Shown piece after piece: positions 154 through 59,876 of a stretch of 64,000 nucleotides of DNA. A program made the position numbers and the translations under genes. Numbering within the stretch: position 1 is the stretch's first letter; every line of letters starts with the position of its first letter. Source of the DNA: Candidatus Omnitrophota bacterium (GTDB taxonomy: Bacteria > Omnitrophota > Gorgyraeia > Zapsychrales > JBAZNR01). The notes beneath the pieces were generated by a model. It did no database searches, was not told the DNA's origin, and was given only the letters and a program-made list of their open reading frames with translations. The stretch spans positions 847,497-911,496 of the forward strand of contig JBAZNR010000001.1 of assembly GCA_041649175.1 (NCBI GenBank). Direction: 5' to 3'.

Positions 154-179
154 GTTTTAATGAAAAGAAGGTAAATTTT

Positions 180-216
180 GAGCCGCGTTTTTCTAAAGAA
201 AAACGCGGCTCAACTA
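180..216. terminator. Bidirectional rho-independent terminator between convergent genes
   Basis: Perfect 14-bp inverted repeat GAGCCGCGTTTTTC-taaa-GAAAAACGCGGCTC flanked by A/T runs. It lies between the + strand receiver gene and the - strand lpd gene. Confidence 0.55.
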
Positions 217-2972: not shown

Positions 2973-5657
2973 TTATGCCGTATGCGGATTAAGTTTCTCG
3001 GGATCGATCTTCATATCTTTGATAGCTTTTTCAATGATGTCGGATTTGATCAGCTTTTCTTTGGCTAAACCAACCAGGGTTGCCAAAACGATATAGCGGG
3101 CATCAACTTCAAAGAAGTCGCGTAAAGATTTTCGGCTTTCACTGCGGCCAAATCCGTCGGTCCCAAGCGCTAAGAATTGCCCGGGGATCCATCGCGCGAT
3201 CGCGTTGGGAAGCGCTTTTAAATAATCAGATGCCGCCACAAAAACTCCGGTTTCTTTAGAAAGGCACTGTGCGATATAGGAAGTTCTTTGTTTCTCTTGA
3301 GGATGAAGCATGTTCCAACGTTCTGTCTCAACGGCATCTTGATGGAGTTCTTTATAGCTTGTGACGCTCCAAACATTAGCCGAGACGTTGTATTGTTCTT
3401 CCAAAATAACCTGAGCTTTAATAACCTCGTTCATAATAGCGCCGCTGCCAAAAAGATTAGCGTGTAATTTTCCGCTCTTCTTCTGGGACGATTTAAATTG
3501 ATACATTCCTTTCAAAATGCCTTCTTTAATACCGTCTCCTTGCGGCATAGCCGGCATGGAATAATTTTCGTTTCCGACGGTTAAGTAATAGAAAATATCT
3601 TCTTGATTTTCATACATGCGCCGGATCCCGTCGCGGATAATGACAGCTAATTCATACGCGAAAGCCGGATCGTAAGCTTTGAGATTTGGGATAACCAGAG
3701 CCGTTAAATGGCTATGGCCGTCTTGATGTTGAAGCCCTTCGCCGGCCAAAGTGGTGCGTCCGGCGGTCGCTCCGATTAAAAATCCTCGGCAACGCAGATC
3801 GCCCGCCGCCCAGAACAAGTCTCCCACGCGCTGATAACCGAACATGGAATAGTAGGCAAAAAACGGGATCGTGTTGATGCCATGCGTCGAGTAAGAGGTT
3901 CCCGCGGCGATAAACGAGGAAATAGCGCCCGCTTCCGTAATGCCTTCTTCCAAGATTTGGCCGTTTTTTGCCTCTTTGTAATAAATAAAACTATCGGCAT
4001 CAACCGGTTCATAAAGCTGTCCGACGTGAGAATAGATTCCGCATTGACGAAAGAGGGCTTCCATCCCGAATGTTCTGGCTTCATCGGGAATGATGGGAAC
4101 GATGAATTTTCCAATATTTTCATCGCGCAATAATTTGGTTAAAATGCGCACATAAACCATGGTGGTGGACACCTCGCGTCCCTCGGTGCCCTTATAAAAT
4201 TCTTCAAAAGTTTCTTCGGGCGGCGTTTGAATGGGCGTACTTTTTGCTCTTCGCGAGGGAAGATATCCGCCGAGTTTTTGACGGCATTCGTGAAGGTATT
4301 TCATTTCCGCCGAATCCTCCGCCGGTTTATAGAACGGCGCTTGAGCGACTTCATCATCCGAAATAGGGATACCGAACCGCGCTCTAAATTCGCGCAGTTC
4401 ATCTTCGTTCATTTTCTTTTGTTGATGAGTGATATTTTTACCTTCGCCGCTTTCGCCAAGCCCGTAACCCTTGATGGTTTTGGCGATGATAACGGTTGGT
4501 GAACCGCGATGGTCAATGGCGGCTTTAAAAGCGGCGTAGACTTTTTCGGGGTCGTGGCCGCCGCGTTTCATTCTTCGAATTTGTTCATCGGATAAACCTT
4601 TAACCAGCTCCAATAATCGTGGGTCTTTGCCGAAGAAATGCTCGCGGATGTATTTCCCGCTTTCAACGACATATTTTTGATATTGGCCGTCCACAACCTC
4701 ACCCATGCGTTTAACCAATAATCCTTCTGAATCTTTTGCTAAAAGCGGGTCCCAGTCATTGCCCCAGACAACTTTGATAACATTCCATCCGGCGCCGCGA
4801 AAGGCAGCTTCCAGTTCCTGGATAATTTTTCCGTTGCCGCGTACCGGTCCGTCAAGTCGCTGTAAGTTACAGTTGACAACAAAGACAAGATTGTCTAATT
4901 TTTCTCGGGAGGCCATGGTGAGGGCGCCTAATGATTCCGGTTCGTCAGATTCACCGTCACCCATAAAAACCCAAACTTTTGCATCCGAACGTGATTTCAA
5001 TCCGCGGTCTTCCAAGTAACGGTTAAATCGCGCTTGGTAAATGGACATAATAGGCCCCAGGCCCATGGAAACGGTTGGAAATTGCCAGAAATCAGGCATC
5101 AGCCACGGATGCGGATAAGAACATAATCCGCCGCCTGGCTTTAATTCCCGTCGGAAATTCTCTAATTGTTCGGCGCTTAGGCGTCCTTCTAGAAAGGCAC
5201 GGGCATAGATCCCGGGAGACGCATGCCCTTGAAAATAGACCAAATCGCCTTCTTGATTCTCGTTTCTTCCGCGGAAAAAATGATTAAATCCGATCTCAAA
5301 AAGGGTAGCCGCCGAAGCGTAGGTGGAAATATGCCCGCCAATACCGTTTTCAACACGGTTGGCCCGCACGACCATGGCCATGGCATTCCAACGGACAATA
5401 CTTTTGATGCGGCGTTCAATATCTCTATTGCCTGGGAAAGGAGGCTGTTTTTCAGCCGGAATGGTGTTGATATAGGGTGTGTTAACGCCAAAAGGGACCT
5501 GAATTCCGGCTTGTTGGGCGCGAATTTTTAACTGTTGTAGAATGTATTGAGCTTTTTGGGGCGGCTCATGCTCCAAAAGGTAATCTAAGGAGCTAAGCCA
5601 TTCTTTGATCTCAACATCATCTATACTGTGGTAATCGTGATTTACCGCATCATCCAT
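2973..5657 (-). CDS. aceE: Pyruvate dehydrogenase E1 component, homodimeric AceE type
   Basis: About 894 aa, the length and composition of a single-chain E1 (thiamine diphosphate binding region, transketolase-like domains). The track ORF extends to 5774, but the ATG at 5655-5657 (MDDAVNHDY...) is preceded by AAAGAGGAAA 7 nt upstream. Alternative starts are 5690 or 5774. Confidence 0.88.
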   Translation of the reverse strand: MDDAVNHDYHSIDDVEIKEWLSSLDYLLEHEPPQKAQYILQQLKIRAQQAGIQVPFGVNTPYINTIPAEKQPPFPGNRDIERRIKSIVRWNAMAMVVRANRVENGIGGHISTYASAATLFEIGFNHFFRGRNENQEGDLVYFQGHASPGIYARAFLEGRLSAEQLENFRRELKPGGGLCSYPHPWLMPDFWQFPTVSMGLGPIMSIYQARFNRYLEDRGLKSRSDAKVWVFMGDGESDEPESLGALTMASREKLDNLVFVVNCNLQRLDGPVRGNGKIIQELEAAFRGAGWNVIKVVWGNDWDPLLAKDSEGLLVKRMGEVVDGQYQKYVVESGKYIREHFFGKDPRLLELVKGLSDEQIRRMKRGGHDPEKVYAAFKAAIDHRGSPTVIIAKTIKGYGLGESGEGKNITHQQKKMNEDELREFRARFGIPISDDEVAQAPFYKPAEDSAEMKYLHECRQKLGGYLPSRRAKSTPIQTPPEETFEEFYKGTEGREVSTTMVYVRILTKLLRDENIGKFIVPIIPDEARTFGMEALFRQCGIYSHVGQLYEPVDADSFIYYKEAKNGQILEEGITEAGAISSFIAAGTSYSTHGINTIPFFAYYSMFGYQRVGDLFWAAGDLRCRGFLIGATAGRTTLAGEGLQHQDGHSHLTALVIPNLKAYDPAFAYELAVIIRDGIRRMYENQEDIFYYLTVGNENYSMPAMPQGDGIKEGILKGMYQFKSSQKKSGKLHANLFGSGAIMNEVIKAQVILEEQYNVSANVWSVTSYKELHQDAVETERWNMLHPQEKQRTSYIAQCLSKETGVFVAASDYLKALPNAIARWIPGQFLALGTDGFGRSESRKSLRDFFEVDARYIVLATLVGLAKEKLIKSDIIEKAIKDMKIDPEKLNPHTA

Positions 5658-5996
5658 CTTGATTTCCTCTTTATTGGTTGAAAAAGACATCGGGTAATTT
5701 CGGGACCTTCCATGACAGGGAGAAGACAAGGTCAAAAGCAGGGTTATTGTATTATGGAATTTCTGTTCGTGCAAGGATAATTTGGTTAAAAAGAGCCTTA
5801 CTTAAAGTGCTTTTTGAGTTCTTGGCAGAAAATTTGGAAGAACAAAGTCAAATATTGCCTTTCTCCCATTGGTTTTAAGGCCGTCATAAGCTATGCGTAA
5901 GTCAATAAAGAGGTTTTTTAAGTTGAACGAAACCCATAAGTTAACTAAAATGATAAACAATATATAGGAAACGTTCAAAGAAAACGGGTCTATCGC

Positions 5997-6707
5997 ATGC
6001 GAGCTATTGTTGTTATTCCTACTTACAATGAAAAAGGCAATATTGATCGCCTTATCGGTGATATTTTGCTTGCGGATCCCTTGATCTGCGTTGTCATTGT
6101 CGATGATTCTTCTCCGGACGGAACCGGGCAAATAGTAGAAAACTTACGCAAAGGTAACTCCAGGGTTCACTTGATCACAAGGCCGCAGAAATCCGGCCGA
6201 GCAAAATCTGACTTAGAAGGTTATCGATATGCTTTAGACCGTGGATTTGATGTTATTTTCTCAATGGATGCCGATTTTTCTCACCAGCCGAAGGATATCC
6301 CTAGGTTTTTGGAAAAAATAAAAAGTTCTGATATTGTTATCGGGTCCAGGCTTATAGCTGGAGGCCAGATCCAGGGACGAGGTTTTTTAAGAAATATCTT
6401 AACTCGATTGGCCAATTTCTATGTTCGGATATTTTTAGGATTTGAAATTCATGATTGGACATCCGGATTTCGATGTTATCGGCGCGAGGTTTTAGCAGCG
6501 CTTCCTTTGGATAAAATGATCTCGCGGGGGCCATCACTTTTAGAAGAGATCCTATTTTTATGCCGCCAAAAAGGCGCCAAGGCCGTTGAAATCCCCGTTG
6601 TTTTTGTTGACCGCGAACAAGGAATATCAAAATTAAAATTAGAAGAGCTCATCGAAGTCTTTGGATTAGTTCTAACATTAAGGTTTAGAAAATGCCTAAC
6701 TTCTTAG
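5997..6707 (+). CDS. GT2-family polyprenyl-phosphate sugar synthase (Dpm1 / polyprenol-phosphate mannosyltransferase-like), no C-terminal TM
   Basis: 236 aa; AIVVIPTYNEKGNI ... DDSSPDGTG ... DADFSH motifs of GT-A dolichol-phosphate-mannose synthase-like enzymes. The stop overlaps the start of the next gene. Confidence 0.8.
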   Translation: MRAIVVIPTYNEKGNIDRLIGDILLADPLICVVIVDDSSPDGTGQIVENLRKGNSRVHLITRPQKSGRAKSDLEGYRYALDRGFDVIFSMDADFSHQPKDIPRFLEKIKSSDIVIGSRLIAGGQIQGRGFLRNILTRLANFYVRIFLGFEIHDWTSGFRCYRREVLAALPLDKMISRGPSLLEEILFLCRQKGAKAVEIPVVFVDREQGISKLKLEELIEVFGLVLTLRFRKCLTS

Positions 6708-8461
6708 GAAGCCTTTTTCCAAATAAAACATCCCGGCATGTGGTTATTCTTATCGCGCTTATCGTCGCTGTTTATGCCAATTCTTTAGGCAATGGCTTTG
6801 TTTGGGACGACTTTTTAGTGATCGCCGGAAATAATTTTGTCAAATCTTGGAGCAATTTTCCTCTGATTTTTAGCCGCGATTATTTAACTTCGCCGGATGA
6901 GGTTTCGTATTTGGGCCAATGTTTTTCAGGAGCGGGGGAAGCGACGTATCGGCCGGTCGTGACCATTTCTTATTTTGTGGATTATTTTCTTTTTGGGCGA
7001 AATCCGTTCGGATATCATTTGGTGAATTTGCTTTTTCATATTTTTAATAGCGTGCTGGCCTATTTCTTGGCGAGAATGATCTTAAAAGACGCGCGCGGCG
7101 CATTCTTTGCGGCTTTATTTTTTGGGCTGCATCCGATCCAGACGGAGGCGGTTAATAATATTTCTTTCCGGGAAGATCTGTTCGTTTTCTTTTTTGGCAT
7201 CTCGGCTTTTATTTTGTTCATAAAAGCTAAAGCGTGTTCTTTGGATCGAAAAAGGTTAATGCTTTTGTTTTCCAACCTATTATTTTTCTTAGCGCTTTTT
7301 TCTAAAGAAATGGCTGTTACTTTTCCTATTTTATTTTTACTTTATGACTATTGTTTCTGCCGCGAAGAGATAAAAGGCGGTTTTTGGAGGCACATCAAGT
7401 CTTATTACTTGGCTTATGGAGTGGTGCTGCTTTTCTTTCTATGGATATGGGCTTTTGTGATGCCTTCAGAAAATAAGCCGCTCATATATTTTGGGCAAAC
7501 GGCATGGAGTAATTTCTTAACGATGGCAAAGGTTTTCGGGATTTATGTCTTTTGGATGTTTATTCCGGTCAATATTCACGGAACAGTTCCGGATTTTTCT
7601 ATCGCAGAATTTTCTTTATGGTCCATTGAAGTTATTGCGGCGATAATGGCCTTACTATTCTTGATGTATTGTGTTGCAAGATTCTGGCAAAGGCATAGAG
7701 TTGTTTCATTCGGCATTCTCTGGTTTTTCATAGCATTGTTTCCGGTTGCTAATATATTTCCAATCCAGAATATTATCGCTTGCCGGTATCTTTATTTTCC
7801 GTCTTTTGGGTTTTTCCTTATCTTCGCTTATGGTTTACGGCAGTTAACTTCTCTGAAAGTAAGATACATCACTGTTGGCTTCCCGCGGCGAATCGAAATT
7901 CTTATTCTTGTGGGCGTAATGATAGTTTACGGGATAGTGACTCCTTTAAGAAATTCGGCCTGGCGTAACAACGATACGTTTTATGAGGACATTTATTCTT
8001 ATTATCCTCAAAAAGAATGGATCCATCGAAGCCTGGCTGGTTCTTTTATCAGAAAAGGGATGATAGAAGAAGCTATCTTGGAATTTAAGATCGCAGGAAT
8101 ATTAGATCCCAAGAATAGCGAAACTTCAGGTTTCCTGGCGCGGCTATATTTGCGACAAGGGAAGATCAATGAAGCTATTCATGAACTTAGGAAAACCATT
8201 GCTTTGGATGAAAGCAATGTTTTTGCCCGTAACGCATTGTGCGGCTTGCATGGGGCGGAAGGTGATTGTCGGAAAGCAATAGCATGCTTTGAGGATTTGA
8301 TCGTAAAAAGCCCGGAATTTCTAGATGGGCATTATAATTTAGGGATCGCCTATCAACATTGCGGGGAAGATCAAAAGGCGAAAAAGGCTTTTGAAGAATT
8401 GCTGCGCCGCGATCCCAAATATCCAAACATTTGGCAGAAATTACGCGAACTAGAACACTAG
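6692..8461 (+). CDS. Polytopic membrane glycosyltransferase (TMTC/PMT_2-like, DUF1736) with C-terminal TPR repeats
   Basis: 589 aa; N-terminal about 400-aa multi-TM region carrying the family signature ...YANSLGNGFVWDD...; C-terminal about 170 aa of TPR-like repeats. Overlaps the GT2 gene by 16 nt, indicating translational coupling. Confidence 0.7.
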   Translation: MPNFLGSLFPNKTSRHVVILIALIVAVYANSLGNGFVWDDFLVIAGNNFVKSWSNFPLIFSRDYLTSPDEVSYLGQCFSGAGEATYRPVVTISYFVDYFLFGRNPFGYHLVNLLFHIFNSVLAYFLARMILKDARGAFFAALFFGLHPIQTEAVNNISFREDLFVFFFGISAFILFIKAKACSLDRKRLMLLFSNLLFFLALFSKEMAVTFPILFLLYDYCFCREEIKGGFWRHIKSYYLAYGVVLLFFLWIWAFVMPSENKPLIYFGQTAWSNFLTMAKVFGIYVFWMFIPVNIHGTVPDFSIAEFSLWSIEVIAAIMALLFLMYCVARFWQRHRVVSFGILWFFIALFPVANIFPIQNIIACRYLYFPSFGFFLIFAYGLRQLTSLKVRYITVGFPRRIEILILVGVMIVYGIVTPLRNSAWRNNDTFYEDIYSYYPQKEWIHRSLAGSFIRKGMIEEAILEFKIAGILDPKNSETSGFLARLYLRQGKINEAIHELRKTIALDESNVFARNALCGLHGAEGDCRKAIACFEDLIVKSPEFLDGHYNLGIAYQHCGEDQKAKKAFEELLRRDPKYPNIWQKLRELEH

Positions 8462-8475
8462 CTTTTTGGAAGGGT

Positions 8476-8504
8476 TTGACAGTCAAATCGTTTGTGGCTA
8501 TACT
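8476..8504 (+). promoter_or_regulatory. Consensus sigma70-type promoter: TTGACA-17 bp-TATACT
   Basis: Perfect -35 hexamer TTGACA at 8476-8481, 17-bp spacer, TATACT at 8499-8504. It lies directly downstream of the TPR-GT stop and upstream of the hairpin array and tRNA-Leu. Confidence 0.5.
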
Positions 8505-8688
8505 GGTGGCGCTGTAAATTTATAAGTTGCGCCACGCCTTGGTGGGGCGCTGTAAATTTATAAGTTGCGCCACGCCTTGGTGGGGCGCTGCAGAGTTTTC
8601 GCGCCCTCTGTCGAGGGCGCTTGAATCTTTCTCAGGGTAGCATGCAAATGTTTTGCGCCCCTACCGGGGCGCTCGAACCTTTTCTTAG
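8504..8688 (+). repeat. Tandem about 38-bp direct repeats (2.4 copies) continuing into four GC-rich stem-loops of the form (T)TGCGCC-loop-GGCGC(T)
   Basis: The unit TGGTGG(GG)CGCTGTAAATTTATAAGTTGCGCCACGCCT is repeated at 8504-8540 and 8541-8578, with a partial third copy. Two further hairpins, GCGCCCTCTGTCGAGGGCGC (about 8600-8620) and GCGCCCCTACCGGGGCGC (about 8655-8672), share the stem but differ in the loop. Each is followed by a U-rich tract. Confidence 0.6.
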
Positions 8689-8710
8689 AAAAATATTAGG
8701 GTAGGTTTTT

Positions 8711-8795
8711 GCGGAAGTGGCGGAATTGGTATACGCGTACGTCTCAGAAGCGTATGGGGAAACCCGTGAGAGTTCAAGTCTCTCCTTCCGCACCA
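8711..8795 (+). tRNA. tRNA-Leu (anticodon CAG), type II with long variable arm, CCA encoded
   Basis: Acceptor stem GCGGAAG/CTTCCGC; anticodon stem TACGT/GCGTA with loop CTCAGAA, giving anticodon CAG; variable arm TGGGGAAACCCGTGA; T-arm GAGAG-TTCAAGT-CTCTC; 3' ACCA. Confidence 0.9.
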
Positions 8796-8815
8796 ATTTT
8801 ATCGGTAATACCATT

Positions 8816-9775
8816 ATGGATTTTCTAACAAATTTCAAAACAACACTTTGGGCGACGGCTCAAATTTTTTTAATGGCTGGTTGCGGATACTTTCTGGTCA
8901 AACGCAAAACCATCGACCATGCCGGGCTTGTTTTATTAAGCAAACTGATGATCAGCCTCTTTTTTCCGCTGTTCACTTTTCATCAACTCATCACGCATTT
9001 TAGTTTTACGGCTTATCAAAATTGGTGGATCTTTCCGTTGATCAGTTTTTCTGTGACTGCGGCAGGATTTCTTTTAGGGTGGTTTGTGGCAAGGGTAGCA
9101 AAAGTTTCTCCTAAAAAAGATTTTATTGCTCTTGTTGGATTTCAGAATTCCGGCTTTATCCCTTTGATGTTGGTAATGAATTTACTTTCAGGTGAACCGG
9201 CTCAAAGGCTATACATTTATATTTTCTTATTTCTGATCGGATTTGATCTGGTGATGTGGTCTTTTGGCGTATGGTTTTTGACAAGACATAAGGCTGGAAA
9301 ATTTGAATTAAAGAATCTCATAGCGTCGCCGTTTACAGCGATCGTTCTTTCTTTGATCCTTATTGCCTTAGGCTTGAACCGTTTTATTCCGGAAGTTATT
9401 TTAAAGCCCGTTAAGATGTTCGGTGATTGCGCTCTTCCTTTAGCGGTGATGATCGTTGGAGGGAATTTAGCCATGATCGATATTTTCTCTGTCGATAAAA
9501 GAAAAGCGGCGCTGGTAACGCTGACAAAATTAGTTTTGCTTCCGCTTCTTGCTTTTAGTTTCATTCTAGCTTTTAAAACCTATGGGCTGATCGGTTTTCT
9601 GATCTTGCTTCAGGCGTGTGTCCCTAGCGCTAATTCTTTGTCGGTCATTTCCCGCCGCCATGAACTGGAAGATAAATTCCTCAACCAAGGTATTTTCTTC
9701 ACCAATGCTTTAAGTATTTTTACACTGCCGTTTTTTTTAACATTCTACCGGCAATTGGGATTGCTCAATTATTGA
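8816..9775 (+). CDS. AEC-family (auxin efflux carrier / malonate-type) membrane transporter
   Basis: About 320 aa and about 10 TM segments, with hydrophobic repeat architecture typical of AEC permeases. The upstream part of the track ORF (8717-8815) overlaps the tRNA and was trimmed to the first ATG after it. Confidence 0.65.
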   Translation: MDFLTNFKTTLWATAQIFLMAGCGYFLVKRKTIDHAGLVLLSKLMISLFFPLFTFHQLITHFSFTAYQNWWIFPLISFSVTAAGFLLGWFVARVAKVSPKKDFIALVGFQNSGFIPLMLVMNLLSGEPAQRLYIYIFLFLIGFDLVMWSFGVWFLTRHKAGKFELKNLIASPFTAIVLSLILIALGLNRFIPEVILKPVKMFGDCALPLAVMIVGGNLAMIDIFSVDKRKAALVTLTKLVLLPLLAFSFILAFKTYGLIGFLILLQACVPSANSLSVISRRHELEDKFLNQGIFFTNALSIFTLPFFLTFYRQLGLLNY

Positions 9776-9776
9776 T

Positions 9777-10232
9777 ATGGAACCAAAATATTTAGCCAGC
9801 AATAAGAAAGCCTTTCACAATTTTTCTCTTTTAGAAAAATGGGAATGCGGAATTATTTTAAAGGGAAGTGAAGTGAAATCATTGCGCGCGAGTGAAGTGA
9901 ACTTTGCGGATAGTTTTGCTCGCATGGAAGATGGCGTGATCGTTCTTTTTAATTTGCATATCGCGCCTTACGCGCAATCAAGCGAAATGGCTTTAGAGCC
10001 CGATCGGCCGCGTAAACTTTTGTTGCATAAAAAGGAAATTGAGAAAATCTCTGCTGTTGTCTCTCAAAAAGGCTTAACGCTTATCCCGACCAGGATCTAT
10101 TTTAATAAACGCGGGCTTGCTAAAGTTGAATTGGCTTTAGGCCGGCCTAAGAAACTTTTTGACAAGCGTGATGACATTAAGAAACGCGATGTTGATCGTG
10201 AATTAAAACGTGCGACGCGCCGCGGGAAATAG
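9777..10232 (+). CDS. smpB: SsrA-binding protein SmpB
   Basis: 151 aa. KGSEVKSLRA ... NLHIAPY ... LLLHKKEI and a basic C-terminal tail, matching SmpB. tmRNA is present at 15007. Confidence 0.93.
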   Translation: MEPKYLASNKKAFHNFSLLEKWECGIILKGSEVKSLRASEVNFADSFARMEDGVIVLFNLHIAPYAQSSEMALEPDRPRKLLLHKKEIEKISAVVSQKGLTLIPTRIYFNKRGLAKVELALGRPKKLFDKRDDIKKRDVDRELKRATRRGK

Positions 10233-10239
10233 GGAAGTT

Positions 10240-12189
10240 TTAAACGAGTGCGGGATTTTTTGTTTCGGCTGTTGTTAATCCAAACGTAAAGCCTTGCTTG
10301 ACCTGTTCGATCAGAATAGGAAGAACTTTCAAATAGTCACCGACAATTCCATAATCTGCCGCATTAAAGATATTTGAATGCGCGTCAATATTGACCGCAA
10401 GGATCTTTCCTGATTCTTTCATCCCACTGATGTGTTGGATAGCACCGGAGATGGCAACGGCGACGTAAACTTTAGGGCGTACCGTTTTTCCGGTTTGCCC
10501 GACCTGACGGCTGTAAGGCGCGTAACCATGATCGACGGCTTGCCGGCTGGCGCCCCAGTCAGCTTTGATGCCTTTGTCTTGCAAGGCTTTGACAAGATCT
10601 TTGATGAGCTTGAATTCATCTAATTCTCCGCAAGGACGTCCGCCGGAGATGATGATCTCGGCGTTAAAAAGGCTTTGTCCGCCGCTTTCTTTTCGTTCTG
10701 TTTCTAAAATCTCCACAAGAAAATCTTCTTTGCTTAAAACGGGGTGGAATTCAGAAACCTTTCCTTGTCGTTCCGGATCTGGTTTTAGCGCTTCGAAAGT
10801 TCCCGGGCGGGCGGTGGCCATTTGCGGGCACCAAAATCCGATAATGGTCGCTAATTTACTTTCACCGTAAGTGGGGCGAATGGCTTCCAAACAAGGGGCA
10901 AAAATAGATTTTAAACGTTTATTGACAAAATCTCCGATACGTAAAATTGTGCAATCTGCCGTAACACCCGCGCGAAGGCGGCTGGCCAAACGCGGAGCGA
11001 GTTCTCGGCCGGATGTTGTTGCGCCAAATAAAGCGATTTCCGGACGGCGCTGTTTAGAAACCTGCGTAATAACGGAAGCAAAAGGCAAAATAGAATATTC
11101 TTTAAGCCGAGGATCATTAACAACAATCACTTCATCGGCTCCGTGCGCGATAACTTGTTGCGCTAAGGAAGTAACATTATCTCCGATAATAACGGAGGTA
11201 ACGGTTGTTTTTAATTCATCGGCGAGTTTTCTAGCCGGATTTAAAATTTCTAAAGAAGAACGGGCGACCGTATTTCCGTACACTTCAACCCACGTTAAAA
11301 TTCCGCTGGCGCCGTTACGAAAATCAACACGAGGAAATTTATCTTCTTTGGGCGCTTGTTCTTCTTCATTGGTTTCTTCTTTAGGCGTGTGCGATTGTTT
11401 AGACGCTTCGCTAAAAACACGGGTAAGATCGGTGTCAATTTTTTGCTCATCGATCATTTGAACCGGTGGACGATTATGGACAACGTTTACCGCCTTGGCG
11501 ACAACGGTTGGAGAACCGGCGAGTCCAACGGTGTCGGGGCTTAATCCGATCTGATCGAGCGTGAATGTTTCAATGGCAATTTGTTTTGATTTGATCGCGC
11601 CGGCTAAAGACGGCCTTCGGGCGTGGACAGCTGTCGGAGCGATGGAAATAATGCAGGGAATCGGTACTTTGAGGGTTTGATGTCCACCTTCGATCATTCG
11701 CCGTACTTTTAAATGATCTCCGCAATATTCAACATGTTCTACGAAGGTGGCTTGAGGAATTCCAAGATTCTCGGCTGTTTGCGAAGGAACGTGCGCGGTA
11801 TCGCCGTCGCTTGTTTGCCGTCCGGCGAAAATAATGAATTTATTATCTTTAGGAATAAGAGAACTTTTTAATAGTGTGGCGATGGCAAGGCCGGTGGCGA
11901 ATGTATCGGAACCGCCTAAACGCCTATCAGAAAGAAGAACGGCGCGGTCATAACCCATAGAAATTGATTTGCGAAGAGATTGTTCAAAGCTTGGCGGCCC
12001 CATGGAAACAACAATTAATTCCGCGTCGGGAACGTGTTTTTTTATCTGCAGGCCTTGTTCTAAGCCGAAAGAACAATCCACGTTAATGATGGATTTTGCT
12101 TTTGTGCGATCCATCAAGCCGTCGGAGCCCATGCGCATTTCTGACGCGACGGGAACTTGCTTCATGAGACTAAAAACTTTTAAACTCAT
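10240..12189 (-). CDS. Fused electron transfer flavoprotein, N-terminal beta subunit and C-terminal alpha subunit (EtfB-EtfA)
   Basis: The N-terminal half (MSLKVFSLMKQVP...) is EtfB-like. A low-complexity acidic linker is followed by an EtfA-like half with its C-terminal FAD-binding region (...AVAISGAIQHISGMKESGKILAVNIDAHSNIF...). The start is trimmed to the ATG at 12187-12189, preceded by GAGGAT. Confidence 0.85.
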   Translation of the reverse strand: MSLKVFSLMKQVPVASEMRMGSDGLMDRTKAKSIINVDCSFGLEQGLQIKKHVPDAELIVVSMGPPSFEQSLRKSISMGYDRAVLLSDRRLGGSDTFATGLAIATLLKSSLIPKDNKFIIFAGRQTSDGDTAHVPSQTAENLGIPQATFVEHVEYCGDHLKVRRMIEGGHQTLKVPIPCIISIAPTAVHARRPSLAGAIKSKQIAIETFTLDQIGLSPDTVGLAGSPTVVAKAVNVVHNRPPVQMIDEQKIDTDLTRVFSEASKQSHTPKEETNEEEQAPKEDKFPRVDFRNGASGILTWVEVYGNTVARSSLEILNPARKLADELKTTVTSVIIGDNVTSLAQQVIAHGADEVIVVNDPRLKEYSILPFASVITQVSKQRRPEIALFGATTSGRELAPRLASRLRAGVTADCTILRIGDFVNKRLKSIFAPCLEAIRPTYGESKLATIIGFWCPQMATARPGTFEALKPDPERQGKVSEFHPVLSKEDFLVEILETERKESGGQSLFNAEIIISGGRPCGELDEFKLIKDLVKALQDKGIKADWGASRQAVDHGYAPYSRQVGQTGKTVRPKVYVAVAISGAIQHISGMKESGKILAVNIDAHSNIFNAADYGIVGDYLKVLPILIEQVKQGFTFGLTTAETKNPALV

Positions 12190-15006: not shown

Positions 15007-15399
15007 GGGGGTGAAATGGTCTCGACTTGAGTTCGACGCTATTTAGGTGGCATGCCGGGGAAGCTTGGTCGGCCCCGATATCAATCCAAGCACACATAAA
15101 CGCAAATAACGACGCGTTCATTGCAGAGGCCGAGGCTATCGCCAACGGCGCTGCAACAGTTGCCGTCTAATAACACGGCACCTTCTTATCTTACTTCGCC
15201 TGCGGGTGGGTAAGAAGCCGATAGCAGGATAGTGGTTGTTTACGCTTTTTAAATAACCATGAAATTCTAAGAAGCTAGTTCTGCCGACATTTGTTTGTTT
15301 GCAGGGAAGCGGAATGAAGTTTCAAAAAACAAAATAAGCATGTAGAGGCCTTTATGGTGTAATTCAAGGACCGGGGTTCGATTCCCCGCACCTCCACCA
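15007..15399 (+). ncRNA. ssrA: tmRNA (SsrA), transfer-messenger RNA
   Basis: 5' GGGGGUG pairs with 3' CACCUCC-A-CCA to form the tRNA-like acceptor stem. The 3' T-arm is GGACCGGGGUUCGAUUCCCCG. An internal tag reading frame (...GCAAAUAACGACGCG...GUUGCCGUC UAAUAA, peptide ending ...AATVAV) closes with tandem stops. smpB lies 5 kb away. Confidence 0.9.
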
Positions 15400-18199: not shown

Positions 18200-18228
18200 T
18201 TGACACATAAAATAAAATCGGTATTATA
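18200..18228 (+). promoter_or_regulatory. sigma70-type promoter TTGACA-16-TATTAT in the GGDEF 3' intergenic region
   Basis: TTGACA at 18200-18205 and TATTAT at 18222-18227. Followed about 60 nt later by a terminator-like hairpin. Confidence 0.4.
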
Positions 18229-18287
18229 AACCGTATATAAGTACTCAGTTGACGTATTTAAACCAGCGGTCAGCGATCTTGAATCCA

Positions 18288-18322
18288 GAGCCCACACTTT
18301 AGAAAATGTTTGGGCTTTTTTT
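18288..18322 (+). terminator. Terminator-like hairpin with 7-T run
   Basis: AGCCCACAC-tttagaaaatg-TTTGGGCT followed by TTTTTTT. Shares the 13-mer AATCCAGAGCCCA (18282-18294) with the hairpin at 18627. Confidence 0.5.
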
Positions 18323-18354
18323 AATAATAAGGTGATAGTCTTTACAGCGATCCA

Positions 18355-18585
18355 ATGAAAGAAAAAACCATAGAAAGAAACGGAGAAAAGATCATCGAGG
18401 TCCGCTCGGATGGCGGGAAGCTCCTTTTTATCAAAACAAAAACGGGATATGAAATGAAGTGTCCCCGGACCAAGACGATCTGCTTGGTCAAATATGAAGA
18501 AATGCTGAAAGATTGCGTGAAATGTTTAGAAGAAAATGTTGGTAGGGAAGATTTGCTGAGTTTTATCGAGAAGGATCATAAGTAG
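18355..18585 (+). CDS. Small hypothetical protein with a Cys4 (CX6C...CX2C) arrangement
   Basis: 76 aa. MKEKTIERNGEKIIEV...KCPRTKTICLVKYEEMLKDCVKCLEE. Poor Shine-Dalgarno sequence. Flanked by two related hairpin elements. Coding status uncertain. Confidence 0.35.
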   Translation: MKEKTIERNGEKIIEVRSDGGKLLFIKTKTGYEMKCPRTKTICLVKYEEMLKDCVKCLEENVGREDLLSFIEKDHK

Positions 18586-18632
18586 ACGTACGTTGATTTA
18601 AAGTTTGTTAGCGGCCGGAGATTTTAAATCCA

Positions 18633-18674
18633 GAGCCCATTTCAAATCATGATTTGAAATGGGCTCCTTGTTTT
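18633..18674 (+). terminator. Strong intrinsic terminator (perfect 17-bp palindrome plus T-run)
   Basis: GAGCCCATTTCAAATCA|TGATTTGAAATGGGCTC followed by CTTGTTTT. Preceded by the same 13-mer AATCCAGAGCCCA as at 18282. Confidence 0.7.
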
Positions 18675-21982: not shown

Positions 21983-22047
21983 AAACGAGCAATTTAAAAA
22001 ATTTCACGGGTTCGGAAGAATTATTCTTTCGAAGGATTTTGATGGTC

Positions 22048-22089
22048 GGGCCGCCATCTGATAAACAATCAGATGGCGGCCCGTTTTTT
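22048..22089 (+). terminator. Intrinsic terminator hairpin (14-bp stem plus T6) located 18 nt upstream of the otsA Shine-Dalgarno sequence
   Basis: GGGCCGCCATCTGA-taaacaa-TCAGATGGCGGCCC-G-TTTTTT, followed by AGGAG and ATG at 22107. Confidence 0.65.
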
Positions 22090-22106: not shown

Positions 22107-24353
22107 ATGAAAATAACTTTAAGGCTTATTTTTTCTTTGATCTTCATTGTGGCTATCGTTGCGTTTTCTTTTTCATTTTGGCAAGCACGCCAAGAAGAGG
22201 AGCGCCTAAAAAGCGAACTGGAGAGAAGAGCTAATATAGTTGCCGACAGCTTAAAAATGTCAGTTGAGCCGTTGCTGCTCATGGATGACCAGAAGCATCT
22301 TCATCGCATTGTTGATAAGTTTTCTAACAGAGAGAGGCTTGTTGGCATTGCTATCCACGATGTCCAGGAAAATCTCATTTTAGCTTCAGCCGATCTTCAG
22401 GCGCAATTGCAAAGAAATCCCAAAGTCATTGCGCCTAATATCCAAGAAGTTGAGAGATCGAACACCGAACGTGGCAAATTCATTAATTTTGGAAAACAGC
22501 AGTTGCACGCTTATTCGGTTCCGCTATTAGCAAATGAAAAAACCAGCCATGTGCTGACCATTTTTCATGACGCGGCCTATATCCAGGACCGGGTGGAGAG
22601 AATTTGGGTCAATAGTTTTTGGAGAGCTTTGATACAAGCTTTTCTGATCTCCCTTGCGACCATGATCCTTGTTTACCTTAATATCATGGCTCCGATTAAA
22701 AAAACAACCGAATGGATAAAGAAGATCAGGAAGGGGGAATCTCCGGAAAAGCTAGATCTTAAAGGACAACAACTTTTGGGGCCCTTGGCAAAAGAGATCA
22801 CCAAAATGGCTAAGAGTTTAGAGGGGGCTAGGCTTTCGGCGGAAGAAGAAGCGCGGTTGCGCCACACCACAGAATCTCTTTGGACACCAGAACGGTTAAA
22901 GGAATTTGTAAAAGATAAGTTGCAGGGACGGCCGCTTTTTGTGGTTTCAAACCGTGAGCCGTATATGCACATCAAAAAAGGAAAAGAGATCGGATACATT
23001 GTTCCGGCTAGCGGGCTTGTGACGGCGATCGAGCCGGTGTTAAAGGCCTGCGGGGGTACTTGGATCGCTCAGGGGAGCGGTGATGCCGATCGTGAGATGG
23101 TGGATAAAAATGATAAATTAAGAGTTCCTCCGGAAGAGCCGCAATATGTATTAAGGCGAATTTGGATCGAAAAAGAACTAGAAGACGGATTTTATTCCGG
23201 ATTTTCCAACGAAGGATTGTGGCCTCTTTGTCATATTGCGCATACTCGGCCCATTTTCAGAGAAAAAGATTGGTTGGCTTATATGGCGGTCAACGAACAA
23301 TTTGCTTCGGCCGTTATTAAGGAATTGGAAGGAATTCCCGAGCCTAATGTGCTTATTCAAGATTATCATTTTGCTTTGCTTCCCGGAATGATCAAGGCCC
23401 AGCGCCCGGACGCGCGAGTAGCTATTTTTTGGCATATTCCGTGGCCCAATCCGGAATCGTTCGGTATTTGCCCTTGGCAAAAAGAAATTTTACAGGGAAT
23501 GTTGGGCGCGGACATTGTTGGTTTTCACACCCAATTTCACTGTAATAATTTCGCGGAAACAGTAGACCGGTTTTTGGAATCTCGTATTGACTACGAACAT
23601 TTTACGGTTAATCGGGAGGGACATACGTCCTGGATCAAACCTTTCCCTATCAGCATTGATTCTAATTTAGCCGGCAATACTTCTCTGGAGATCAAAGAAA
23701 CAAAAGAAAGCCTCTTACGGAAATATAATATTCAAGCGGATTATATGGGAGTAGGCGTGGACCGTTTGGATTATACCAAAGGAATTGTTGAGAGGTTTCG
23801 TGCTGTTGAAAGTTTCTTGGAAAAAAATCCGCAATATGTCGGAAAGTTTACTTTTGTAGAGCTGGGAGCTCCTAGCCGGACGATGATCGCTAAGTATAAG
23901 GAGTTTGTGGATGATGTTATTCAGGTTACCGAAAAGATCAACGCGCGGTTTAGAACGAAAACATGGCAGCCGATCTTATTTTTAATGAAGCATCATAGTC
24001 ATGCGGAGATCTTACCGTTTTACAGAGCGGCCGATGTGTGTTTGGTAACTTCTTTGCATGACGGGATGAATTTAGTTGCTAAAGAATTCGTGTCTGCTCG
24101 CGATGATGAAAAGGGTGTTTTAGTTTTAAGCCAGTTTACCGGAGCGGCACGTGAATTGCGGGATGCCCTCATTGTTAATCCTTATGATATCGGACAAACT
24201 GCTGAGGCTATCAAAGTCGCTTTAGAAATGCCGGCATCAGAGCAGAAGGAAAGAATGGAGAGCATGAGAGGATTGCTTAAAGATCATAATATTTATCGTT
24301 GGGCCAGCGCGCTAGTCGGAGAGCTTGCCCAAGTGAGGTTGAACAAAACTTAA
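22107..24353 (+). CDS. otsA: Trehalose-6-phosphate synthase (GT20, OtsA) fused to an N-terminal TM - periplasmic sensor - TM - HAMP module
   Basis: 748 aa. Residues 1-270 carry TM1 ([19 protein letters not shown]), an about 145-aa extracytoplasmic domain, TM2, and a HAMP-like amphipathic linker ([16 protein letters not shown]...[14 protein letters not shown]). Residues 270-748 are a complete GT20 domain (FVVSNREPY..., GGLVTAIEP, ...[11 protein letters not shown]...). Confidence 0.85.
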
Positions 24354-37913: not shown

Positions 37914-38630
37914 ATGGCACAAAAATTATTCCTTATTCCTAATTTTTTGCATGAAACATCCGGATCTGATGTGATGCCGGGATATATTAAGGAAATGATC
38001 AAACATGTGCGCGCTTTTTTGGCAGAAGACCAAAAAAGCGCGCAACGTTTTCTAAGGAAGATCGATTCTGCTTTTCCTCTTACCGAATGCCAATTCTTTT
38101 CGCTTAATGAACATACTAAGAAAAACGAAGCCGAAGAATATTTAAACATGTGCTTTGGCCAAGACATTGGCATTATTTCCGAATGCGGTATGCCTTGCGT
38201 GGCTGATCCGGGCGCGGATATTGTTTTGTTGGCTCATCAAAAGGATATGGAAATTATTCCTTTGATCGGCCCCTCATCCATTTTTCTCGCGCTTTGCGCT
38301 TCAGGCCTTAACGGACAGAATTTCTCCTTCAATGGATATTTACCCAAAGAACGCGATGAGCGCCTAAAGAAAATCAAATTTCTTGAACAGCGCTCGAACC
38401 AGGAAGGCCAAACCCAGATCTTTATGGAAACGCCTTATCGCAATGAACATTTATTTGAAGATATTCTTTCCTCTTGCCGCGAAACAACATGGCTTTGCGT
38501 GGCCTGCGATTTAACTTCTCCAACCCAAATGGTGAAAACTTTATCTATTAAAAACTGGAAAAAAGAAAAACCATCGCTCAATAAAAGACCCGCTATATTT
38601 CTTATTCAAACCCTAAGCCCTAATCCCTAA
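37914..38630 (+). CDS. SAM-dependent methyltransferase of the tetrapyrrole-methylase superfamily (RsmI-like)
   Basis: 238 aa. ...LFLIPNFL... N-terminus and ...ISECGMPCVADPGADIV... ...GPSSIFLALCASGL... motifs resemble RsmI/YraL-type 2'-O-methyltransferases. Confidence 0.5.
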   Translation: MAQKLFLIPNFLHETSGSDVMPGYIKEMIKHVRAFLAEDQKSAQRFLRKIDSAFPLTECQFFSLNEHTKKNEAEEYLNMCFGQDIGIISECGMPCVADPGADIVLLAHQKDMEIIPLIGPSSIFLALCASGLNGQNFSFNGYLPKERDERLKKIKFLEQRSNQEGQTQIFMETPYRNEHLFEDILSSCRETTWLCVACDLTSPTQMVKTLSIKNWKKEKPSLNKRPAIFLIQTLSPNP

Positions 38631-59811: not shown

Positions 59812-59834
59812 TTAGTTGAAGTTGAAAGATAAAC

Positions 59835-59876
59835 AGCGGCCCGCCATTGGTTCAATGGCGGGCCGCTCCTTTTTCT
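59835..59876 (+). terminator. Strong intrinsic terminator (perfect 15-bp stem plus T-run)
   Basis: AGCGGCCCGCCATTG-gtt-CAATGGCGGGCCGCT followed by CCTTTTTCTC. Confidence 0.8.

Follow-up and report, generated by a model that had tools for sequence, protein, structure and literature searches.

The hairpin array upstream of tRNA-Leu(CAG)

The element described here is an array of hairpins that fills the ~200 nt between a promoter and the tRNA-Leu(CAG) gene in the genome of an uncultured Candidatus Omnitrophota bacterium. All positions refer to the window, that is, the whole 64-kb stretch of DNA that was analysed, unless a relative is named. The locus, which continues downstream into the genes for an AEC/Mem_trans transporter and for SmpB, and the transfer-messenger RNA (tmRNA) gene of the same window are composed as follows (HP1 to HP4, hairpins 1 to 4; P1, the short GC-clamped hairpin of a module; P2, the helix next to the tRNA; z, deviation of the folding energy from shuffled sequences).

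8476–8504 (+): sigma-70-type promoter, with TTGACA at 8476–8481, a 17-nt spacer and TATACT at 8499–8504
8508–8590 (+): 38-bp tandem unit GGCGCTGTAAATTTATAAGTTGCGCCACGCCTTGGTGG, 2.2 copies, 100% identical
8529–8550 (+): HP1, GCGCC-A-CGC CUUG GUG-G-GGCGC, eight base pairs, one A.G mismatch, CUUG tetraloop, -12.5 kcal/mol
8567–8588 (+): HP2, identical in sequence to HP1, -12.5 kcal/mol
8601–8620 (+): HP3, GCGCCCTC UGUC GAGGGCGC, a perfect 8-bp stem of the P1 type, -17.5 kcal/mol, z -4.9
8621–8654 (+): tail of the HP3 module, TTGAATCTTTCTCAGGGTAGCATGCAAATGTTTT, which retains TTGAATC, TTTCT, AGGGTAG and GTTTT
8655–8672 (+): HP4, GCGCCCC UACC GGGGCGC, the terminal P1 helix, -16.1 kcal/mol
8675–8708 (+): P2 helix, in which GAACCU (8675–8680) pairs with AGGUUU (8703–8708)
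8711–8795 (+): tRNA-Leu(CAG), 57.1 bits with the Rfam tRNA model, 3′ CCA encoded
8816–9775: AEC/Mem_trans transporter gene, downstream of the tRNA
9777–10232: SmpB gene, downstream of AEC
15007–15399: tmRNA

The promoter fits the consensus at 11 of 12 positions; it is the sole promoter-like site called by a promoter scan within 7500–9800 and one of four sites with at least 11/12 matches on both strands of the window, and the usual promoter spacing would place the transcription start at ~8510–8512. An initial annotation of this DNA had proposed a consensus promoter ahead of about 200 nt that precede tRNA-Leu(CAG), and both are found where it had placed them. The leader lies on the tRNA strand between this promoter and the ribonuclease P (RNase P) site without any intervening promoter, an arrangement that is shared by the relatives considered below. 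Upstream, the locus is flanked by a glycosyltransferase gene and by a gene for a TPR protein that ends at 8461. Downstream, only 20 nt separate the tRNA 3′ end from the start codon of AEC (8816), and since scans detected neither a promoter nor a terminator in this gap, AEC and smpB may be transcribed from the tRNA-Leu promoter. The AEC protein shares 100% identity with one encoded on a 1.17-Mb contig of a Candidatus Omnitrophota metagenome-assembled genome. The tmRNA gene has a short (~33 nt), unstructured leader.

The initial annotation had described an exact 38-bp repeat in 2.4 copies and four hairpins built on a shared stem opened by TTG: the repeat is present, in 2.2 copies, and the four GCGCC...GGCGC hairpins are present as well, with HP3 preceded by TTC instead. 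Shuffles of the whole window give an expectation of 1.79 matches to the GCGCC-N-GGCGC pattern, and the only match found besides these four is a chance site at 11021. Successive hairpins are separated by gaps of 12 to 34 nt, and the leader as a whole folds with z = -5.8 against shuffles. P2 has a U-rich 5′ arm and a 3′ arm with GGUAG, and its closing pair lies 2 nt from the tRNA 5′ end. By inspection of an alignment with the HP4 module and with the modules of a relative (L129), the tail of HP3 looks like a degenerate P2 region that has lost its loop, and the HP3 module as a whole like a terminal module that has decayed.

The P1/P2 module and its conservation in relatives

Related loci (labelled L) were obtained by scanning genomes at the protein level, by searching metagenome DNA with the 5′ half of the tRNA, and by contig look-ups for AEC homologues, which together gave a sample of about 20 Omnitrophota loci. 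The DNA pattern proved too permissive, most of its 120 matches being unrelated tRNA-Leu genes that were reused as negative controls. The tRNA-Leu(CAG) gene lies near AEC, smpB and tmRNA in most of the ~20 loci, frequently on the strand opposite to AEC, and L136 has no tRNA nearby; TTGACA-17-TATACT stands upstream of the tRNA in every tRNA-bearing locus. The leader between this constant promoter and tRNA varies from zero to four hairpins.

L125/L126 and L135: no leader hairpins; the -10 box ends 9–15 nt before the tRNA
L001 and L131: one GC hairpin each (GCGTCCCGCC...GGCGGGACGC) plus tail; P2 pairing AAGCUU/AAGCUU in L001 and GAGCUU/AAGCUC in L131
L127: one long P1 hairpin plus tail; P2 pairing AAGUU/AACUU
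L132: two hairpins; P2 pairing GGACUU/AAGUCC
L129: three hairpins in the same orientation as in the window, GCGCTCCC-UUCG-GGGAGCGC, GCGTCCCGC-...-GCGGGACGC and GCGCTCCC-UUGC-GGGAGCGC; P2 pairing GAACC/GGUUC
Window: four hairpins; P2 pairing GAACCU/AGGUUU

On a neighbour-joining tree of the AEC proteins, window-type hairpins occur in a clade formed by the window, L001, L125, L127, L124, L132 and L129, and also in L131; L001, with one hairpin, and L125, with none, are sisters. Folding of the 100 nt upstream of the tRNA separates the Omnitrophota loci from the negative controls, with a mean z of -3.2 for 13 of the former and of -0.62 for 103 unrelated tRNA-Leu loci (Mann-Whitney p = 1.6e-5).

The modules can be aligned within and between genomes through a TTTY lead-in, stem ends of the type GCG...CGC and a T-Y-G-R-A-Y-C tail, which in L129 takes the form TCGAACC in two modules and TTGGAC in one. 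HP4 aligns with P1 of L129 (its third hairpin), L001, L131, L132 (its second hairpin) and L127, and P2 is formed throughout by the tail that follows the last P1 and the bases just before the tRNA, closing 2–3 nt before the tRNA 5′ end. An alignment of these six terminal modules has 89.6% of its cells paired, and both sides have changed in 9 of the 18 pairs; none of 500 shuffles matched the observed pairing and two-sided changes, and sliding the partners by 1–3 columns lowers the pairing to 34–56%. In P2 the compensatory variants of the six genomes are AACC/GGTT, AAGC/GCTT, GAGC/GCTC, GGAC/GTCC and AAGT/ACTT. RNAalifold, run unguided, predicts the identical P1 and P2, and when the sequences are folded singly, P1 and then P2 appear in the window, L129, L001 and L127, four of the six genomes. 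Structure prediction and covariation analysis in relatives, which the initial annotation had suggested as a check, thus recover both helices, whose support by compensatory changes is modest, coming from six sequences.

A covariance model of the terminal module (R1) scores 64–83 bits on its six training sequences, including 70.5 bits for the terminal module of the window, and 23–26 bits on internal modules (window 8597–8640 at 23 bits; L129 2658–2728). Across the window and the fetched loci it returned no further match of the internal-module kind, and no additional copy of the hairpin was found in the 64 kb of the window or in the ~870 kb of fetched loci.

The exact 38-bp repeat, the aligning HP3 and HP4 modules and the identical stems of the first and third hairpins of L129 point to repeated tandem duplication as the process by which P1 was amplified to four copies in the window. 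The 38-bp repeat is, judging from the sequence, the most recent of these duplications and the one that created HP1 and HP2.

Several observations concern the cassette made of promoter, leader and tRNA. It is inverted relative to AEC-smpB in most relatives: L001, L124–L128 and L131–L134 are opposite to the window, L129 and L135 have the same orientation, and this distribution indicates that the whole cassette was turned round as one block in the course of evolution. In L135, a tyrosine (phage-type) integrase gene (4965–5999) lies directly downstream of smpB, where other relatives have tmRNA. All relatives examined share the -10 box TATACT, and the 17-nt promoter spacer (8482–8498 in the window) is partly conserved as AAAAYGTTTG / AAAAYGTTTGYCGR across genomes whose AEC proteins are merely 55–70% identical; the conserved spacer could be a regulator site overlapping the promoter.

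A second, unrelated type of leader is present upstream of tRNA-Leu(CAG) in L002 (3187–3470, minus strand), L087, L133/L134 and L137 (1–290, minus strand). In L002, L087 and L137 its repeat units open with the first 10–13 nt of the tRNA (GCGGAAGTGG), and in L003 a leader hairpin opens with GCCGGGATGG, which equals the 5′ end of its own tRNA; a footprint of this kind is expected from tandem duplication with one end inside the tRNA. At their 3′ ends, leaders of the second type carry a covarying hairpin (GCTCGAA/TTCGAGC, GCTAAA/TTTAGC, GCTCAAA/TTTGAGC); GAAGTAGA (or AGAA/TAGA) stands between this hairpin and the tRNA.

On the other side of the tRNA, 3′ trailers of ~100 nt (L087, L131, L133, L129, L127, L135 and L125) carry two hairpins. 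The first (T1) pairs the discriminator and CCA end of the tRNA with the trailer, as in GCACCAGTCT...AGACTGGTGC, while the second (T2) has a GC clamp and precedes GCAC(CA), a motif similar to the tRNA 3′ end. Model R1 matches trailer regions on the opposite strand with 20–35 bits. In the window AEC starts 20 nt past the tRNA, and trailer hairpins are therefore absent. In L001 the tRNA 3′ end and the trailer are duplicated (3437–3540 and 3620–3730) beside a run of N, which looks like the footprint of an integration at an attachment (att) site or like an assembly problem. The P2 region of L001 is moreover nearly complementary to its trailer, with a duplex of -22.6 kcal/mol (z -3.0). A leader-trailer stalk as a general feature was rejected, because L001 is the only locus in which the predicted duplex of the leader with the tRNA 3′ end plus trailer is significant (window z -0.6, most relatives not significant).

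Proposed role of the leader and competing explanations

The reading that we favour, with a probability of roughly 0.5, is that the array represents a lineage-specific, tandemly amplified and structured 5′ leader of pre-tRNA-Leu(CAG), an RNA that would act in cis and would be removed by RNase P. Its module would consist of P1, with the ends GCG...CGC, and of P2, an AU-rich helix that stands 2–3 nt before the RNase P site. According to this model, the consensus promoter would transcribe the array along with the tRNA, each hairpin would fold locally during synthesis and expose a stable tetraloop (CUUG in the window, UUCG in L129), and the entire leader would be cut off by RNase P. Held by its hairpins in self-contained structures, the leader would be unable to mispair with the tRNA, and the hairpins might in this way set the stability of the precursor and the rate of its processing. 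A structured tRNA leader was among the possibilities raised by the initial annotation, and it is the one strengthened by the homologous modules that relatives carry between the same promoter and tRNA and by their compensatory changes. What that annotation had missed is that the array is an amplified conserved module, that P2 adjoins the tRNA 5′ end, and that the hairpins are absent in close relatives.

Typical bacterial tRNA leaders are short and unstructured. The array resembles precursor-tRNA leaders and external transcribed spacers such as 3′ETS-leuZ in being non-coding and structured, in lying with a tRNA-Leu behind a tRNA promoter where RNase P would release it, and in remaining outside the mature tRNA; it differs from typical leaders in its ~200 nt, its modularity and its covarying helices. 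A structured leader of this type is new, has so far been seen only before a single tRNA within one clade of Omnitrophota, and is probably non-essential. A scan with Rfam 15 matched no family in the leader, whose best matches have E > 2 and fall far under the gathering scores; scans of the loci of seven relatives and of the whole window gave no match for the leader either, and a full-text literature search returned no description of structured tRNA leaders in Omnitrophota.

Several points weigh against this interpretation. A helix 2–3 nt from the cleavage site is expected to hinder or slow RNase P. Considered alone, HP1 and HP2 are no more stable than shuffles (z -1.0), P2 is a weak helix in this genome (-6.8 kcal/mol, z -1.1), and the minimum-energy fold of the whole leader pairs distant repeat copies with one another in preference to forming four local hairpins. 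The covariation sample amounts to six alignable and mutually related modules, and P1 shows some sequence conservation, L001 and L131 having the same GCGTCCCGCC. Lastly, L125/L126 and L135 have no hairpins, so any function can be dispensed with, and there may be none.

As a rule, the tRNA leaders of bacteria are seen as short and disposable, whereas here a clade of an uncultured phylum keeps a modular, covarying leader before one tRNA, with a copy number that shifts between zero and four among closely related genomes. If functional, the leader would be an unrecognised layer of control on tRNA supply, through the gating of RNase P, the stability of the precursor or the release of abundant leader RNA; if functionless, it would provide a clean natural case of tandem duplication that builds hairpin arrays in which pairing is kept merely for harmlessness. 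Whichever holds, the module is a candidate new RNA motif that Rfam-type curation could take up.

Unlikely in our estimate, and still the alternative that survives best, is that the array is a tolerated by-product of slippage and tandem duplication at a highly transcribed, hairpin-rich site, in which pairing is kept merely to avoid the mispairing of a GC arm with the tRNA. The rapid turnover of the copy number, by which even the sisters L001 and L125 differ, would fit such an origin, as would the exact and recent 38-bp duplication, the tRNA 5′-end footprints in the repeat units of the second leader type and the GCAC(CA) motifs, similar to a tRNA 3′ end, after the trailer hairpins. A mere by-product would however have to account for the persistence of P1 and P2, with compensatory changes, across the same 55–70% identity of AEC proteins, for the conserved position of P2 relative to the cleavage site, and for multi-hairpin leaders in three separate lineages (window, L129 and L132).

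The leader could also serve as the source of a small RNA, which we regard as quite unlikely. In this scenario, RNase P would free the ~200-nt leader or hairpin-sized pieces, to function in trans as a base-pairing small RNA, a sponge or a protein-binding RNA. The strong promoter and the stable tetraloop hairpins are compatible with such a product, the freed leader would end in P2 followed by UUUUU, CUUUC or similar, like the 3′ end of a small RNA, and a precedent exists in Escherichia coli, where 3′ETS-leuZ is a regulator derived from the spacer of a tRNA precursor. Unlike 3′ETS-leuZ, the array lies on the 5′ side of the tRNA and has no conserved single-stranded seed: loops and linkers differ among the window, L129, L001, L131 and L132, and since neither the loops nor the single-stranded stretches are conserved, no seed is shared. 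Moreover, the loops contain no GGA-type motifs, the copy number falls to zero in close relatives, and neither a partner protein nor a target could be identified at the locus. The independent small RNA proposed by the initial annotation is therefore weakened by the lack of conservation in the single-stranded parts and is retained at this low level.

To the same degree doubtful is a leaky attenuator, in which each hairpin and the U-run downstream of it would end a fraction of the transcripts and thereby scale down tRNA-Leu(CAG). In the window it would also lower the read-through into AEC-smpB, and GGCGC/GCGCC pairings between neighbouring hairpins would be possible antiterminators. The array does share with intrinsic terminators and attenuators its GC-rich stem-loops, the U-rich sequence downstream of them (TTTTC, TTTCTC, TTTTCTT) and the position between promoter and gene. 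The tail TTTTTCTAAA is similar to those seen at likely terminators (CCTTTTTCTCAAAAG at 59835 and AACGTTTTCTAAGGA at 38009), model R1 weakly matches the hairpin at 59832 (19 bits), and in L002 and L003 leader hairpins have an adjacent T-run. Neighbouring arms can also form alternative helices, for example at 8583–8606, and the lack of a detected terminator between tRNA and AEC would leave read-through to be limited.

The geometry of the hairpins argues otherwise. Intrinsic termination requires a U-tract that abuts the hairpin, at 0–2 nt from the stem. The initial annotation had reported a U-rich tract after each hairpin and had likened the series to tandem weak terminators; T-runs do follow HP2, HP3 and HP4, beginning 6–7 nt downstream of the stems, but none adjoins its stem, and after HP1 comes an AT-rich tract (TGTAAATTTATAAGTT). 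With the U-tract so displaced, HP1 to HP4 would be at best very weak terminators, and a terminator scan called none of them. For comparison, four hairpins of the window (18633–18666, 22048–22082, 38009–38043 and 59835–59867) are read as likely terminators from their long GC stems and adjacent T-runs: in all four the stem is 12 bp or longer, the energy lies between -22 and -34 kcal/mol and the T-run begins 1–4 nt past the stem, while the G+C-rich leader stems, with 7–8 bp and -12.5 to -17.5 kcal/mol, reach about half that length and energy. Furthermore, the first hairpins of L129 and L132 are homologous modules without any T-run, and the T-run of the terminal module belongs to P2, as the 5′ arm of that covarying helix. 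No sensing element was found either: the leader has no riboswitch or T-box match in the Rfam scan, and a leader peptide was rejected, because the open reading frames of the leader have only mechanical TTG/GTG starts, with no ATG and no conservation. A lower output would also be more simply reached by a weaker promoter. The leader hairpins thus do not appear to be efficient intrinsic terminators, a series of tandem weak terminators is not supported, and they caution that a GC hairpin with a nearby T-run is not always a terminator.

Improbable as well is an active cis-regulatory device formed by P1-P2, either as a helix that gates RNase P or as a modifier of RNA polymerase similar to the put RNAs of phage HK022, with the copy number as dose; in the window it would couple the maturation of tRNA-Leu(CAG) to the expression of SmpB. 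The expectation that P2 slows RNase P leaves room for gating and makes a regulatory role fit better than a passive one. A tentative likeness to put lies in two adjacent stem-loops, with P1 and P2 1–2 unpaired nt apart, in the early-transcribed region of a strong promoter. In contrast with put, the array bears no sequence relationship to it, has no demonstrated downstream terminators to override, amplifies P1 and places P2 against the tRNA.

Very improbable is a dispersed, REP-like (repetitive extragenic palindromic) or miniature mobile palindromic element clustered at this site, or a DNA operator for a dimeric regulator: GC-rich palindromic units are indeed repeated in an intergenic region, with a 26-bp GGCGC-N16-GCGCC unit present twice just 3′ of the promoter, but no further copy exists in the 64 kb or in the flanks of relatives, all units share a single orientation, homologues always lie between this promoter and this tRNA, and the compensatory stem changes keep pairing rather than a sequence for protein recognition.

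Other known classes were compared with the array and rejected. The initial annotation had considered it neither CRISPR-like nor an obvious REP element, and had reserved the dispersed-repeat scenario for a unit found at many sites; the absence of further copies from the window and from ~870 kb of other loci upholds the former and weighs against the latter. CRISPR arrays have identical direct repeats of 23–47 bp, unique spacers of similar length and usually cas genes nearby, whereas the hairpins of the window vary in sequence (except that HP1 = HP2), their gaps of 12–34 nt include two that are identical, and a scan of six neighbouring proteins gave no match to a Cas family. In type III antitoxin RNAs of the ToxI kind, a promoter precedes tandem repeats of ~34–36 nt, and a terminator and the gene for an endoribonuclease toxin come after them. 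The array, like ToxI and like REP elements and bacterial interspersed mosaic elements (BIMEs), has short palindromic or tandem units in non-coding DNA, with a 38-nt period close to the 36 nt of ToxI; unlike them, it is not dispersed, it has only 2.2 exact repeats of 38 nt, and what follows is the tRNA, the Mem_trans/AEC transporter and SmpB, with no endoribonuclease toxin gene. A DNA operator was discarded because the stems vary by compensatory substitution, and a sponge of the Csr/Rsm type because there are no GGA loops. AUUAGGGUAGGU resembles the T-box core, yet the Rfam scan gave no T-box match. An origin of the TCGAACC tail from the T-loop of the tRNA was set aside as well, since by eye the tail does not track the T-loop of its own tRNA and its variation is explained by P2 pairing.

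Other elements of the window

Likely terminators of the window (178–213, 18633–18666, 38009–38043 and 59835–59867) share an unusual tail, TTTT(T)CTNAAAA or TTTTAGAAAA, located 1–4 nt after long GC stems, and the TTTTTCTAAA motif recurs in the leaders and trailers of the tRNA in relatives. An nhaA-I (sodium) riboswitch is present at 22008–22059 on the plus strand (Rfam RF03057, 50.2 bits); the terminator hairpin at 22048–22082 overlaps it and lies upstream of the gene at 22107–24353. Lastly, the region 18200–18670 on the plus strand contains a near-consensus promoter, TTGACA-16-TATTAT, followed by two copies of a ~55-nt element at ~18265 and ~18610, each composed of AGCGGNC.G.GATYTTRAATCCAGAGCCCA, a hairpin and a T-run, which flank a small open reading frame at ~18355–18585.

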